Of a stretch of 64,000 nt of DNA, positions 16,801 through 22,800 are shown piece after piece. The DNA comes from an uncultured Verrucomicrobiae bacterium (lineage in GTDB: Bacteria; Verrucomicrobiota; Verrucomicrobiia; Chthoniobacterales; Chthoniobacteraceae), in contig CAVYKI010000003.1 in the NCBI GenBank assembly GCA_963769025.1, positions 192,001 to 256,000 on the forward strand, written 5' to 3'. The stretch's first letter is position 1; every line of letters begins with the position of its first letter. The position numbers are program-made.

Positions 16801-19800
16801 CGCCGATGCCGAATAGCGCGCCCACGGAGACGTGGGTCGTCGAGACCGGCATCCCGAACATGCTCGCACCGATCACGAGAATGCCGGTGGCCAGGTTCGC
16901 GGAAAAACCCTGCCCGTGATTCATCGTGGTGATTTTGTGGCTCATGGTCTCCGCGACGCGGCGGGCGCCCAGCACGCCGCCGACAGCGATGGCGAGCGCC
17001 ACCAAAAGCAGGCCCAGCCGGATGTCGAACGCCTGCACGACGAGGAGCAAGGCGGCCATCTTCGGCGTGTCGTTCAGGCCGCGCGCGAAGCTCACGACGC
17101 CCGAGCTGACAAAATGTGCGGCGTCCATCGTCCGCTGGCAGTTCACGCCCAAATACGTGCCGGAGTAGCGCTCCGCGCATTGCTCCTCGCTGTCCATGAC
17201 CAAGGCCAGCCCATCGACGCGCTGCATGGCGAATACCGACGCCGGCTGCGGGATCGGGACGACCCGTTGCTCCGAGCCGATGCAGACGCAGGATTCCTTC
17301 GTGATGCCAAGCCGCAGGCGCACGAAGCGGAGCGCCAGGTAGATCAGCGCGCCGAGCAAGACCGCCAGCACGGGAGCGAGCAGCAACGGCAGAAAAAACT
17401 GCCTGCCGAGAACCGCGAAGCCCACGTGTCCGCCCACCGCAGCCAGACCGCTCCCGACAATGGCCCCAGTGAGGCCATGGGTCGTGGAAATGGGGAACCC
17501 GAAACGGGTGGCGAGGATGACGGTGAAACCGGCACCGAGCGCGACGGCCATGAGGAAAGGTTCCGAGCCCGCGAGCGCATCGGGCACGAGGCCCTTGCCG
17601 GAGAATTTTTTCAGGAGCGCCTGCGCGAGGAAAATGGAGCAAACGGAGCCCGCGAACGTGGTGATGGTGGCCCAGGTGATGGCCGTGCGGTAACCCGTCG
17701 TGCGACTCCCGAACAAGGACGCGACGCCCTTGAAATTATCGTTCGCGCCGTTCGAGAAGGCGAGGAAGGCGACTGCGATGAGGAGGATGATGGTCATTGG
17801 GGAGACGCGGCCATTCAGGCTGGCCGAGGCGCTGCTACACGGGACGTGCGGCTGATACACTGGAATCCGAAAGCATGCATGCGACTTCGATTTCTCATGA
17901 ATGACACTTGAGCGCCATCTGTTTGTAACATGGGGGTGCCAGATTCACGCCGCACTCAAAACCACCTGTCACACAAAACTCCACTTATGCTCAAAACCAC
18001 GCTTTCGCTGAGCCTCGCCTTCACCGCCGCCGCATTCGCCGGTCCGGCCCAGGTCACCAAGACCGAGGCCAAGGAAAAATCCGTTTACGATTCCATCTGG
18101 GATTCGCTGACGCTTTACAAAAACAAGGACGGCCTTTTCCTGAATGAATTCCGCATCACTGGCCGCGCGCACTTCGATTCATATTACACGGACTCGAACC
18201 TCGGCTGGGATCAGGACTGGACCGTGCGGCGCCTGCGCATCGGCGGAAAGGCCACGTTCTTCCAGAAGCTCGACATCCACGTGGAGGCCGACCTGGCCCC
18301 GCAGAACCTCGGCGGCGCGCTCTTCGTGGACGACCCGGTTTACCAGAAGCTCACGGATGCCTACGTGTCCTACAAGTTCAGCGATGCGCTGAAGCTGACG
18401 GTCGGCAAGCAGTCCGTGAAGTACACGCTCGATGGCGGCACTTCGTCGAACGAACTCATCACGATCGACCGCAACAACCTGGCGAACAACCTGTGGTTCA
18501 CGACCGAGTACATCAGCGGCGTGAGCGCGAGCGGAAAGCTGGGCAACTGGCAGTACAACACCGGCATCTTCTCCGGCGGCTCGATCTACGCGTCGCAGAG
18601 CGGATTTGCCAACAGCTCGAAGGAGTTCGGCAATTTCAACGGCGGCAACTTCTGGCTCGGCAGCGTCGGCTACGATTTCGCGAAGGCGCTGAACGTGAAG
18701 AAGGCGCTGCTGCGCGCGGACTTCGTCTATAACGACCCGAGCCCGCAGAGCAACGCGACGAAGAACTTCTCGCAAATCGGTTCGCTGACCTTCCAGTACG
18801 ACACCGGGCGCTGGGGCTTCTCGACGGATCTCGCGGCCGGCAACGGCTCGCTCGGGCAGAGCGACATGTGGGGCTTTGTGGCGATGCCGTGGTTTAACAT
18901 CACCGAGAAGCTGCAGGTCGTCGGCCGCTACACCTACATGTCCAGCGACAGCGCGGACGGGATCAGCTTCAACCGCTACGAAAATACGATGGCTGTGAAT
19001 ACGAACGCGAACGGCACATTCCGGACGAACGCGCTCGGCAGGGTGAGCTCGCAGCGCGGCGACGAATACAACGAGCTCTATGTCGGGCTGAACTACTTCC
19101 TCTACGGCCACAAGCTGAAGCTCCAGACCGGCTGGAACTACGCCTGGATGGGCGACAGCGCGAACAACGGCGGCAAGTACGCCGGCTGGACGTGGACGAC
19201 CGGGCTCCGCGTGAGCTGGTAATTTACGGGGTGCGGGATTCGCGCAGCCGCCGTTCGACCCGGCGCCGCCGAAACCGCACCTGTCCGTTCTCCGCTGTTG
19301 AACTCCACGACTGAAAGATTGCAGTGTCACAAGATTGGCTCCCGACTGCCACACAATCGTAACATTCGTCCCGCAACCTCTCACCTTTCCAAAGCCTGAT
19401 GCCCTCGCACTACGAAGACTCACTCCAGAACGACATCGATCGGATCCGCAAGAAGGTCTCCGAAATGGCCCGGCTCGCGGAATGCGCGCTCGAAGCATGC
19501 CTGAAGGCGCTCGCCACCTGCGACCGACAAATCGCCTACGCGGTGATCTTGCGCGACCGGCGCATTGACGAGTTGGAGAAGGAGCTGGACCGGCTGTGCC
19601 TGGAGTTTCTCATCCGCCAGCAGCCCGTCGCACGGCATCTGCGGCTCGCATACATCACCATCCGCGTGAACCTCGAGCTCGAGCGCATCGGCGATTACGC
19701 GGAGAGCATTGCACGGCAGACGCTGAAGCTCGCGCGGATGAATGCGCAGATTCCCATCGAGCGTTTCCAGCAGATCGGCAGCCTCAGCATCCCGATGCTG

Positions 19801-22800
19801 CGCGACGCGGTGAAGGCGTTCATCGCGGGCGACGAGGCGCTCGCGCGGGATGTCATCACGCGTGAGGACGAGGTGGATGCGCTGCGGAATGTCATCAACA
19901 ACGAGCTGTTCCAACTGCGCGAGGACAACCTGATTCCGCTGGAGGCTCTGACGCCGCTGATGACCATCGCGCGCCGCTTTGAGCGCGTGTCCGACCAGGC
20001 CACGAACATCTGCGAGGAAGTCATCTACATGGTGACGGGCGAATATCCTCGCAAGCTCGGCGGCGACACGTGGCGCATGGTTTTCATCGACGATCGCCAT
20101 CACTGCCGCAGCCAGATGGCCGAGGCCATCGCCACGGCGCTCAACCGTCCGCAATTCGTCTTTGCCAGCGCGGGCCTGACCGCGACGGAGATCGATCCCG
20201 GCACTGTGGAATTCATGCGGAGCAAGGGCGTGGATCTCTCACACGCACAGAGCCGCAGCGTGGCACAGCTCCCGAATCTCGACGCCGCGCAAATCATCGT
20301 CGCGCTCTCGCCCGCGGCGAAAAAGGCATTCCCGAAACCGACCAAGGCCGTGTGCCTCGACTGGAGCCTGCCCGATCCATCGCTCCTCGCCGGAAACGAC
20401 GCGGAAAGGCGCGCGGCCTACGAGTCCGCCTACCAGTTTCTCCGCGAACACATCTCCGAACTCTGCGACGCCGTGCTCAGTGACAGCATCGGCTGATTTT
20501 ACCAACAAACAAAGAATCCATGAAACGAACATCCACACTCGCGCTCGCGACCCTCGCGGCGACGGCAATCTTCATCACCGGCTGCAACAAAAAGGGCGCA
20601 ACCGAAGGCGGAAAGTCCGGCACCGTCGCGCTGCAGAACATCGGCTCCGACACCATGGTGAATCTCGCCCAGGCATGGGCCGAGGCATACGCCCAAGTGG
20701 CGCCCGGCGTGTCCGTCGAAGTCTCCGGCGGAGGCAGCGGCATCGGCGTCGCGGCGCTCATCAACGGCACCTGCGACATCGCCAACAGCTCGCGCAGCCT
20801 CGAAAAGGAGGAGGAGGAAAAGGCCACCGCGAAATACGGCGGCAAGCATCCCGTCGAGCACCTCGTCGCCTACGATGCGCTGGCCATCTACGTGCATCCC
20901 AGCAATCCCCTGAACGAGATCTCCGTCGAGCAGCTCAGCGACCTTTTCCGCGACGGCGGCAAGATCAGCAAGTGGAGCGACCTCGGCGTCGCCGCTCCCG
21001 GCGGGCAGGACGAAATCGTGCGCATCAGCCGCCAGAACAACTCGGGCACCTACCATTACTTCCGCGAGGCGGTGCTCGGGAAAAAATCCGACTTCCGCCC
21101 CGGCTCGCGCGACATGTCCGGCTCGAAGGATGTCGTGGAACTCGTCGGCAACACGCCCGGTGCGATCGGCTACAGCGGCATCGGCTACCGGACGGACAAG
21201 GTGAAAGTCCTCAAAGTCTCGAAGAAGACCGGCGAGGCTGCGGTCGAACCAAGCATCAAGACCGCGCTCGACAAGAGCTACCCGATCGCCCGCCCGATGT
21301 TCATGTATGCGCCTCCGGGAGCGAAGCCCCAGGTGGACGCCTACCTGAAGTGGATCACCTCCGCGCCGGGCCAGGCGATCGTGATTGATAAGGGCTACAT
21401 CCCGCTCCCAGAGTTCGCGCCGAAAGACAAATAGCAACCCCGATTTGAATCAAGGACGGGCGGTGACTTGCCAGCACCGCCCGCCTTTTTTCGTTCAGCG
21501 AAAGCCCTGATGCACGCCCAGATCCAGACACCGCCCAAGCAGGCCGCCACGGTCGCCGTTCACACGGCGCTCGTGCTCCTCTGCGCCGCGGTCACGGTCG
21601 CGCTCGGGTGGTTCGCCGCCGGCGGCGCGCAGGCCCGCGCTGCGAACGGCTCATGGCTCGCCGAGGGCTGGCTGGGGCTGGGCGCATTTGCCGGATTCCT
21701 CGCGAGCGCCTTCATCGCGCGACGCGGACGGGTCGTGGAATGGGCCGGCATCCTCGCCTGGCTGGCTGTGCTCGCGGCATTCCCGCTCGTCCATGCGCTG
21801 TCCGGCCGATCGTTCCTGCCGTACTGCGGGCTCACCTTCGTCTTTCTCTTTGCCGCGCTGCATCTCGGCGGCTTCCTCGCGTCGGAGATCGGGGGCTTTG
21901 CGCACGACGGCTTCATCGAGCGCCCCATCCGCATCGCGGGCATCAGCGCGATCGTCTTCGTCTTCGGCATCTTCTTCTTCGTCTTCCGCGAAGGCGGCCC
22001 GATCCTCTGGGAAAAGGGGACGAACTTCAGCCTCTCGCAGTTCCTCAGCAGCCCCGATTGGTTTCCCACGTCATTGGGAAACAAACGCTACGGCGTGCTG
22101 CTGCTGATCATCGGCACGCTGAGCGTGACCGTCCTCGCGATCCTCATCGCCGTTCCGTTCGCGCTCGGCGGGGCGATTTTCCTCTCCGAGTTCTGCACGG
22201 GAAAGCTGCGCGAGTGGATGAAGATCATCATCGAACTGCTGGCCGCCATTCCCGAGCATCGTCTGGGGCTTCATCGGCATCACGGTGATCAATCCGCTGA
22301 TCATCAAACTGTTCGGCGTCTCCATCGGCCTGAACGTCCTGAACGCCGCATTCATCCTCGCCCTCATGGCCATGCCCATCATGGTCAGCATCGGCGAAGA
22401 CGCGCTCAAGGCCGTCCCGGACAGCTACCGCGAGGCCGCGACCGCGCTCGGCGCCACGCGCTGGCAGATGATTTACCGCGTGCTCCTGCCCGCGGGAAAA
22501 AACGGCCTGCTCGCCGCAGTCCTCCTCGGCGTCGGACGCGCGGTGGGCGAGACGATGGCCGTGCTCATGGCCACCGGGCATTCGATCAACAACCCGTTCA
22601 TCAAGGACGGCTCGTTCAATTCCGCGTGGATGTTTGAAAGCTGCCGGACACTCACCGCCACCATCGCCGCGGAACTTGGCGAAGCCAGCGAGCACAGCCC
22701 GCACTACCGGGTCCTCTTCATGATCGGCATCCTGCTGCTCGGCACCACCTTCGTCATCAATCTCGTCGCCGACCTCGTCGTGAAAGGCGTCCGCAAACAG

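Follow-up and report, generated by a model that had tools for sequence, protein, structure and literature searches.

In an uncultured Verrucomicrobiae bacterium, the PhoU protein encoded at the head of the operon for a Pst phosphate importer is fused to a pseudo-ArsC domain. A single open frame (positions 19399..20496, plus strand, of the 64-kb window, by which we mean the whole stretch of DNA that was analysed) encodes this 365-amino-acid protein. Its sequence shows that the C-terminal half adopts the ArsC fold and is unable to run the three-cysteine relay of arsenate reductases. We lean toward the view that this half is a putative contact module, most likely a pseudoenzyme that plugs its own active site.

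Architecture and occurrence of the fusion protein

The first half is a PhoU domain (residues 1-214; 19399..20040, plus strand). Residues 9-215 score 166.2 bits against the full-length PhoU model TIGR02135, which exceeds the cut-off of 130.25, and Pfam PhoU matches the protein twice. This half comprises two three-helix repeats (the six-helix tandem-repeat fold) with the conserved acidic motifs D53-x3-D57, E95-R96-x2-D99, E156-x3-D160, and E195-R196-x2-D199, which are near-invariant in 121 close proteins, and its predicted model matches 1t72 and 4q25 with a TM score of 0.94. Canonical PhoU proteins (TIGR02135, PF01895; 1t72, 4q25, 1sum, and 2i0m) share the fold, the acidic and E-R-x-x-D motifs, and the pst operon setting. 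In contrast to these proteins, the fusion adds a 140-residue domain, and its gene precedes pstS instead of following pstB.

A linker (residues 215-224; 20041..20070, plus strand), with pLDDT below 50 at residues 219-222, leads to the pseudo-ArsC domain (residues 225-365; 20071..20496, plus strand), which is assigned from profile matches, alignment, fold match, and conservation. Pfam LMWPc matches residues 229-331 at 33.9 bits (cut-off 23.2). When the C-terminal part is searched alone, its best match is the ArsC model TIGR02691 (E 2.8e-15, 56.7 bits), far under the equivalog cut-off of 174.3, just as a preliminary description of this DNA had stated. The predicted model of the domain has the LMW-PTP fold, and Foldseek matches it to the ArsC structures 8p6m and 1jl3 with TM scores of 0.85-0.87 of the target. 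The uninterrupted frame, the two models passed above their cut-offs, and the fold matches bear out the earlier claim of a PhoU joined to an ArsC/LMW-PTP fold. The model of the whole protein has a pTM of 0.61 and a loose linker. For a fusion from the far group, the model reaches pLDDT 92.7 and pTM 0.83 and still matches ArsC structures, and this high pTM predicts that the domains of that protein pack in a fixed arrangement. Covariation in 339 sequences (effective number 166) gave plausible pairs within each domain and no consistent inter-domain set, and the solved structures searched include no chain that spans both PhoU and ArsC domains. An assembly artefact was rejected as the source of the fusion because 120 of 120 homologues among the matches listed align across both domains or are partial.

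Full-length matches to the fusion occur in 44 of 150 family genomes and in 27 of 29 of the genus, reproducing the figures given before. In the species-level genome set, 483 stretches were matched; record titles place matches in Verrucomicrobiota and Myxococcota, and atlas labels add further phyla. The description of the fusion as the genome's only PhoU holds for this 83% complete assembly and does not generalize: a second, shorter PhoU match is present in 10 of the 44 fusion-bearing family genomes, and four of five other genomes read carry a further PhoU gene. Elsewhere, the genome studied here contains intact ArsC and PTP genes, along with PhoB- and PhoR-like genes that score below the cut-off. 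Given these PhoR/PhoB candidates, the idea that the fusion replaces PhoR/PhoB is not supported. Our literature search found no paper on this PhoU-pseudo-ArsC fusion system.

The pst operon and its unequal PstB pair

The fusion gene heads the operon and is followed directly by pstS in 79 of 80 related loci (the remaining contig ends inside the fusion gene), the arrangement first described. Here, pstS (20520..21434) encodes a phosphate-binding lipoprotein (TIGR02136, 231.5 bits against a cut-off of 206.6). It is followed by the permease genes pstC (21468..22806) and pstA (22803..23720; BPD_transp_1) and by genes for PstB1 (23717..24490; aligned to the solved PstB 9k3x) and PstB2 (24487..25259), all on the plus strand. 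In this assembly, a frameshift near 22255 splits pstC, and two more (near 25000 and 25160) interrupt the PstB2 gene. PstC carries about 110 additional hydrophobic N-terminal residues, and the permease G-E-T motifs are retained.

Alignment reveals four Pho-box-like direct repeats (GTCAC, GGCTC, GCCAC, and GTAAC) with an 11-bp period at 19325..19368 (plus strand), ending 30 bp ahead of the fusion start codon. Repeat pairs at 11, 22, or 33 bp are present in 52 of 79 upstream regions compared to a mean of 0.84 and a maximum of 4 in shuffles, for a pattern picked after the alignment had been seen. A scan of the 64-kb window with the E. coli Pho-box consensus gave four matches against 2.5 expected by chance, with none at this operon, and a sigma-70 promoter scan found none. 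Farther upstream is a phosphate-selective porin family gene (17930..19222, plus strand; PF07396). Its adjacency, previously presented as part of the operon's setting, is real here and is confined to close relatives (one cluster, in 15 of 85 loci). A divergent PHO4/Pit-family transporter gene (16682..17860, minus strand; PF01384) is an accessory neighbour, and Pit-like genes are found in 17 of 85 loci. Among neighbours that recur in at least 4 of the 85 loci, no arsenic-resistance gene was evident by eye.

The two PstB proteins deviate from the canonical motifs at different places. PstB1 has an intact LSGGQ signature and Walker B Glu, while its Q-loop Gln is changed to Pro, its H-loop His to Asn, and its Walker A and D-loop are altered; all 61 first PstB copies of related loci show this pattern. 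PstB2 has intact Walker A, Q-loop, Walker B, and H-loop motifs and the signature LQLEQ, as do 58 of 58 second copies. Wherever both copies can be read (58 loci), the asymmetric pair is present, and it also occurs in far-group loci (L229-L232). With composite sites made up as in PMC7756269, the non-canonical motifs (the Q-loop and H-loop of PstB1 and the signature of PstB2) map to one site. By analogy to ABC architecture, one of the pair's two ATP sites is predicted to work and the other to be dead; since PstB1 keeps its Walker B Glu, we infer rather than observe impaired hydrolysis at the degenerate site.

The E. coli PstSCAB complex (9k3x, 9k3s) shares PstS, PstC, PstA, and PstB homologues with this system. 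As presented in the excerpts of PMC12976172, it has two copies of one canonical PstB without a regulatory domain, whereas two paralogues with complementary defects are present here. Excerpts of PMC11466899 list Bacillus subtilis with two PstB genes (PstBA/PstBB) and note site degeneracy for RbsA and NupO alone. In degenerate-site ABC transporters (TAP, ABCC, and Pdr5; RbsA and NupO), non-canonical motifs likewise cluster at one composite site, according to PMC7756269. Unlike those proteins, the present pair keeps the Walker B Glu, is changed in the Q-loop, H-loop, and signature, and is encoded by two genes of a phosphate importer.

Among the 150 family genomes, 42 carry both the fusion and PstB1, two the fusion only, two PstB1 only, and 104 neither, such that the fusion and the asymmetric pair occur together in 42 of 46 genomes with either. 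Of the four discordant genomes, three were read and show a contig end or frameshifts, and coordinates place the remaining one at the end of a contig. We rejected the proposal that asymmetric PstB needs the fusion, because four genomes (L261, L263, L264, and L265) pair it with a plain PhoU of 220-227 aa; the extra domain is therefore not required by the pair. The PstB1 and PstB2 trees conflict as to whether the plain-PhoU genomes lost the extra domain or never had it, and they disagree likewise on the order in which PstB asymmetry and the fusion arose.

Erosion of the ArsC active site

The P-loop of the fusion protein reads F-I-D231-D-R-H-H-C-R237-S. D231 (20089-20091) aligns with the first P-loop Cys of the Synechocystis-type 2l17 and of 1jl3, and the nucleophilic Cys of C-x5-R is absent, with Asp231 in its place. 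H234 replaces the conserved P-loop Asn, and both resolving Cys of ArsC are lost (aligned positions S304 and about F311). The residues C236, R237, S238, W322, and D326-P327 are retained. Thioredoxin/glutaredoxin-coupled ArsC proteins (1jl3, 1ljl, 2l17, and 8p6m) share the LMW-PTP fold, the SQMAE helix, SAG, and W-x3-DP, whereas the fusion clade has Asp at the nucleophile position, lacks both resolving Cys, and can dispense with the Arg.

Asp occupies position 231 in 79 of 80 close loci, in agreement with the catalytic degeneracy already proposed. The P-loop Arg is kept in 63 of these loci and replaced in 17, with at least nine changes on the tree compared to one for D231. The close loci also keep the P-loop Ser (78/80), C236 (80/80), C319 (59/80), and D326 (75/80). 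Among 96 representatives of the wider clade, 79 have D231, 85 an acidic residue at 231, 10 the Arg (often Leu instead, in 41), 21 the general-acid Asp, 94 W322, and 83 P314. A tally of 101 representatives found C236 in 28 and D326 in 25. The earlier statement that C-R-S is kept thus applies to this protein and its close relatives and fails in the wider clade. At least two acidic residues lie within positions 231-235 in 75 of 96 representatives versus 0 of 44 in an intact-type fusion family, and 52 of 96 carry D or E at position 232. Of the P-loop residues, D231 is the one most consistently retained in the clade, and the other acids shift position; L355 is conserved alongside W322, P314, and D231. 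Four frameshifted or domain-less proteins (P0168, P0198, P0207, and P0289) were left out before counting, as was every representative of <335 or >400 aa. The 96-row tally leaves out the query and four non-clade fusions, and L023, which is cut by its contig, was left out of the tree-change and dN/dS analyses.

Active-site residues have eroded in many different ways among relatives, and full length and fold are maintained across proteins less than 50% identical. The median dN/dS is 0.26 for the PhoU half and 0.35 for the ArsC half (613 non-independent pairs), and purifying selection acts on both. The cationic anion cradle is not conserved across the family, with the Arg lost repeatedly and the loop acidic.

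The separate, intact-type family of PhoU-ArsC fusions (clade II; P0232 and P0328-P0371) has the same domain order and lies beside pst or phoBR genes. Its catalytic residues (C-x5-R, two later Cys, and DP) are all kept in 24 of 44 members, and erosion took the Cys and spared the Arg in 9 of 10. Because this mostly intact family keeps the Arg in 41 of 44 members, Arg loss is specific to the clade studied here. The PhoU half of clade II groups with standalone PhoUs, and its gene is the last of the operon, mostly with one canonical PstB, whereas the studied fusion heads its operon.

The fusion clade forms one side of a 100/97 branch, and an intact protein, P0184, is adjacent in both domain trees. 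Together with the separate intact fusions, this placement suggests that the clade descends from an importer-tethered arsenate reductase, a history that leans on P0184. A free-standing Asp-type domain found no support: the 24 short matches among 41 candidates are all single records, of which the close ones resemble fragments or late starts of the fusion and the three most divergent ones represent ordinary Cys-type ArsC.

Possible roles of the ArsC-fold domain

According to PMC11389368 and PMC5775613, the signal sensed by PhoU and its reading of the Pst pump are still open. In the mechanism that we propose, the fusion would be the PhoU of a distinct Pst importer. The Walker, Q-loop, and H-loop motifs of PstB2 and the LSGGQ of PstB1 would form the single hydrolysing site, and the Q-/H-less face of PstB1 and the LQLEQ of PstB2 the single degenerate one. 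As it does in E. coli, PhoU would link the importer to PhoR/PhoB, here by relaying the state of the asymmetric motor. The dead ArsC domain would be a structural contact module, neither enzyme nor oxyanion sensor, with Asp231 occupying the place of the Cys thiolate or its arseno/phospho adduct and plugging the old cradle, so that the Arg would be free to drift. Selection would keep the fold and surface features (SAG, P314-x2-T/A317, W322, and the last helix), which may pack against the helical bundle of PhoU or contact PstB1/B2 or PhoR as a partner. Historically, a PhoU-tethered arsenate reductase would have removed arsenate that entered via Pst, with catalysis lost once and the protein retained in a new role.

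The preliminary description had proposed a built-in phosphate/arsenate sensor. Its structural part, namely a PhoU that carries a degenerate ArsC domain and whose gene opens a pst operon, stands. In such a sensor, the P-loop backbone, R237, and S238 would bind cytoplasmic phosphate or arsenate, Asp231 would read its proton, and binding would switch PhoU. These residues and D326-P327 are present here, and since the Arg is retained in this protein and in most close loci, anion binding by the pocket may persist in this case. Furthermore, excerpts of PMC3172300 report that a Cys-to-Asp PTP (PTP1B C215D) is catalysis-deficient and binds substrate, and those of PMC11389368 describe the Salmonella Pho signal as cytoplasmic and unidentified. 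However, the repeated loss of the Arg, the acidic loop, and the His in place of the P-loop Asn make an oxyanion sensor unlikely, and the old pocket is too variable among relatives to warrant the phosphate-sensor label. It is also doubtful that these genes encode an undescribed second type of Pst signalling complex, in which a dead-ATP-site importer would report its conformation to PhoU, and the co-opted ArsC pocket of that PhoU would directly bind a cytoplasmic signal (phosphate, a phospho-metabolite, or Mg2+).

D231 and nearby acids at the end of strand 1 could instead form a binding site for Mg2+/Mn2+ or for the basic loop of a partner; alternatively, D231 could be phosphorylated as in a receiver. 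The conservation of D231 and the frequency of neighbouring acids fit this idea, and a title cited in PMC12976172 (Gardner 2014) reports metal binding by PhoU. We consider such a pocket quite unlikely because the other acids move, position 304 at the end of strand 3 varies and offers no conserved Asp, and the fold is that of ArsC; a receiver-domain reading of the V-F-I-D-D strand was rejected given the ArsC/LMW-PTP fold matches and the variable position 304. That the domain is a decaying passenger, retained only through the fusion, would accord with its varied erosion, with the four genomes in which a plain PhoU accompanies a pump of this kind, and with two genomes (L233 and L234) in which the entire operon is decaying. 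The maintained length and fold, the dN/dS of the ArsC half, and the conservation of W322, P314, L355, and D231 make this very improbable. Residual enzyme activity, with Asp231 as a phosphatase nucleophile or C236 and C319 handling arsenic, would suit the retention of C236, C319, and D326 in close loci. We give it hardly any credence, as C236 and D326 are mostly absent from the wider set, the Arg needed for catalysis is dispensable, and intact ArsC and PTP genes exist in the genome.

The fusion is a widespread natural PhoU variant with an add-on domain, beside a pump that, unlike one with a homodimeric PstB, permits separate mutation of its two ATP sites. With the intact fusions, it forms a graded series from enzyme to pseudoenzyme. 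Should the domain be a contact module only, the gain would be moderate, consisting of a newly recognized Pst subtype and corrected annotation where the domain is named a phosphatase or arsenate reductase. Should it bind a signal, this single protein would give a way to study the still unidentified Pho signal inside the cell and would document how a transporter-tethered detoxifying enzyme became a sensor. According to excerpts of PMC3172300, a natural Asp for the catalytic Cys also occurs in the second, regulatory domain (D2) of Drosophila PTP99A, although D2 has the classical PTP fold and is found in a eukaryotic, unrelated context.

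A PhoU fused to a degenerate ArsC-fold domain

The gene at window positions 19399-20496 (+) is one open frame of 365 residues, of which residues 9-215 pass the cut-off of TIGR02135 (PhoU equivalog) and residues 229-331 that of Pfam LMWPc. The C-terminal part alone best matches TIGR02691 (ArsC; E 2.8e-15, far below the model cut-off). These matches bear out the preliminary description of a PhoU joined to an ArsC/LMW-PTP-fold domain, and the fusion is, as also claimed there, the sole PhoU of this 83% complete assembly. An intact ArsC and an intact LMW-PTP, both named from motifs, are encoded elsewhere; the ArsC (G000:C3:1088908-1089297) directly follows an aquaporin-like gene, likely forming a two-gene arsenic unit. 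An AlphaFold2 model built from 66 relatives (pLDDT 92, pTM 0.61, linker 219-222 loose) matched PhoU structures first and ArsC structures next, with no solved chain spanning both domains among 18 structure matches.

When aligned to solved ArsC chains, D231 occupies the place of the first P-loop Cys and H234 replaces the P-loop Asn. The later two ArsC cysteines correspond to S304 and about F311, and C236, R237, S238 and D326-P327 are retained. The roles we assume for the aligned ArsC residues agree with mutant titles among the structure matches. Judged from the aligned residues, an arsenate-reductase relay is impossible for the second domain.

The architecture shows up in public domain annotation. 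Full-text literature searches listed no title or abstract opening on the fusion or on the asymmetric PstB pair described below; subscription papers and supplements, outside their scope, could mention the architecture. We conclude that the fusion and its pump are a real, widespread variant of PhoU/Pst, apparently unstudied so far.

Conservation and possible roles of the second domain

Among 80 close loci, the Asp reported earlier in place of the nucleophilic Cys recurs in 79. The accompanying claim that C-R-S is kept holds for this protein and, for C236, in 80/80 loci, but R237 is present in only 63/80. On the PhoU-half tree, the Arg requires at least nine changes and the Asp one. Of the top 150 hits of a profile search against 50%-identity representatives, 105 were full-length proteins, and 96 were left after removing the query, four broken proteins and four from other fusions. 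Position 231 is Asp in 79 of the 96 (acidic in 85), position 237 is Arg in 10 and Leu in 41, and W322 and P314 are found in 94 and 83, respectively. Across the clade, therefore, the Asp and the fold persist and the anion-binding Arg is given up.

We modestly favor the view that the second domain persists as a self-plugged pseudoenzyme that acts as a putative contact module of this pump's PhoU, although covariation gave no consistent inter-domain pair set between the PhoU and ArsC-fold domains. Putative oxyanion binding, making the domain a sensor, is a lesser prospect, and it concerns the close group, including this protein, in which most loci have R237. An acidic pocket for a metal or a partner seems unlikely; two or more acids do lie within 231-235 in 75/96 representatives. 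It is quite improbable that the domain is a vestige: a crude estimate over 613 non-independent pairs puts dN/dS at 0.35 in the second domain, against 0.26 in the PhoU half, and the model of a far-group member (pTM 0.83) still matches ArsC structures. Residual catalysis is the most improbable reading, with the general-acid Asp in 21/96 representatives.

The PstB pair and operon that accompany the fusion

Compared with solved E. coli-type PstB, PstB1 (23717-24490) carries Pro in place of the Q-loop Gln and Asn in place of the H-loop His, with LSGGQ intact. PstB2 (24487-25259) is complementary, with an intact Walker A, Q-loop, Walker B and H-loop but the signature LQLEQ. In each ATP site, one subunit supplies Walker A/B, the Q-loop and the H-loop, and its partner supplies the signature (excerpt of PMC7756269), so the defects of both proteins fall on one site. 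How dead this site is can only be inferred, because the Walker B Glu is retained. In E. coli, mutations in the PstB signature and in its Walker B fix the Pho signal in opposite states (excerpt of PMC5775613), making the asymmetry relevant to signalling. In loci L014-L093, similarity picked out 120 PstB-like frames: 61 belong to the first type and 58 to the second, and one is canonical on the other strand.

A pattern scan of a species-level genome set matched 483 stretches, the best 80 being mostly from Verrucomicrobiota and Myxococcota. A set of 250 well-completed genomes from the same phylum as this bacterium held 220 PhoU matches, and the 150 of them that were listed lie mostly in open frames of ordinary PhoU length. 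The fusion is present in 44 of 150 family genomes, as counted previously, PstB1 in 44 and both in 42; contig ends or frameshifts explain those with one alone. Within 200 genomes of another phylum, 11 carry a PstB1-type gene; this gene accompanies the fusion or its C-domain in six and a plain PhoU in four, and lies on a short contig in one. These counts indicate that the fusion accompanies the asymmetric pump, and the four plain-PhoU genomes show that the pump can do without it. A second PhoU besides the fusion occurs in 10/44 family genomes and 4/5 others.

The four plain-PhoU loci (L261, L263, L264 and L265) have the asymmetric pair in the rearranged order pstA, pstB1, pstB2, pstS, pstC, phoU, and their partner signature is eroded further (LSLE/D-x-RQK). 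At L233 (7686-10579) and L234 (7798-10680), a shrunken operon holds the fusion, one short permease fragment and two ATPases without the Walker B Glu; pstS is absent and Ser/Thr kinase genes adjoin. This is either decay or a transport-dead signalling remnant.

The fusion was described as heading the pst operon with pstS directly after it, an arrangement found in 79/80 loci; four far-group loci read pstS, fusion, pstC, pstA, pstB1, pstB2. PstS passes its protein family model. Upstream of the fusion lie four repeats of 11-bp period (19325-19368), which look similar to PhoB-type boxes. In 52/79 upstream regions, which come from related loci, repeats are paired at a spacing of 11, 22 or 33 bp, versus a mean of 0.84 in shuffles; the pattern was picked after viewing the alignment. 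PhoB- and PhoR-like genes score below cut-off in this genome. GTAAC, GTCAC and GACAC pentamers also precede the porin gene (17900-17980), which probably starts near 17987, and are a possible second Pho-type promoter.

Frameshifts split pstC (21468-22806), pstB2 and a biotin-synthase-like gene (25960-27079), and likewise genes at L004 and a second Pit-like gene; they look like assembly indels, since pstC and pstB2 are whole in relatives. The PstC N-terminus (21468-21915) has about 110 extra hydrophobic residues versus most relatives (about 300 aa). Insertions of 300-750 bp, one holding a small putative PIN-like-looking frame, separate pstB1 from pstB2 at L019, L022, L026-L029, L038 and L040. 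A Pit gene and a neighbor that we presume to be DUF47/PhoU_div-like often diverge from the fusion (L029, neighbor at 5108-5740, and 18 other loci).

Intact-type fusions

Six Cys-bearing or near-intact fusions used as queries retrieved a second family, a natural control, of 44 proteins: 34 keep the Cys, 41 the Arg, 44 the Asn and 24 the full set. The acidic loop is absent, and eroded members that lost the Cys retain the Arg in 9/10. The Asp-type clade forms one side of a 100/97 branch in the PhoU-half tree and is separated from the intact-type family at 99 in the C-domain tree. The PhoU half of the intact-type fusions clusters with standalone PhoUs, partly by selection, as these came from a profile close to them. 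P0184, a single protein with no locus, has a fully intact ArsC, shares with the Asp-type clade the loop motif before W322 and branches beside it in both trees; for these reasons, we read its sequence as a probable relic of the clade's ancestor.

Intact-type fusions are the terminal gene of pstSCAB or follow phoB-phoR. Those at L095-L098 lie immediately 3' of phoB-phoR rather than pstB, and several have Gly at the catalytic Cys position. The Gly-bearing proteins keep the Arg and are better candidates for oxyanion-binding pseudoenzymes than the Asp-type clade. At L204 (G389, about 8200-13000), an operon closed by an intact-type fusion encodes a milder asymmetric PstB pair, in which the first protein lacks the Q-loop Gln, reads V-T-N and forms a long branch basal to the PstB1 group, and the partner signature is LSGEQ.
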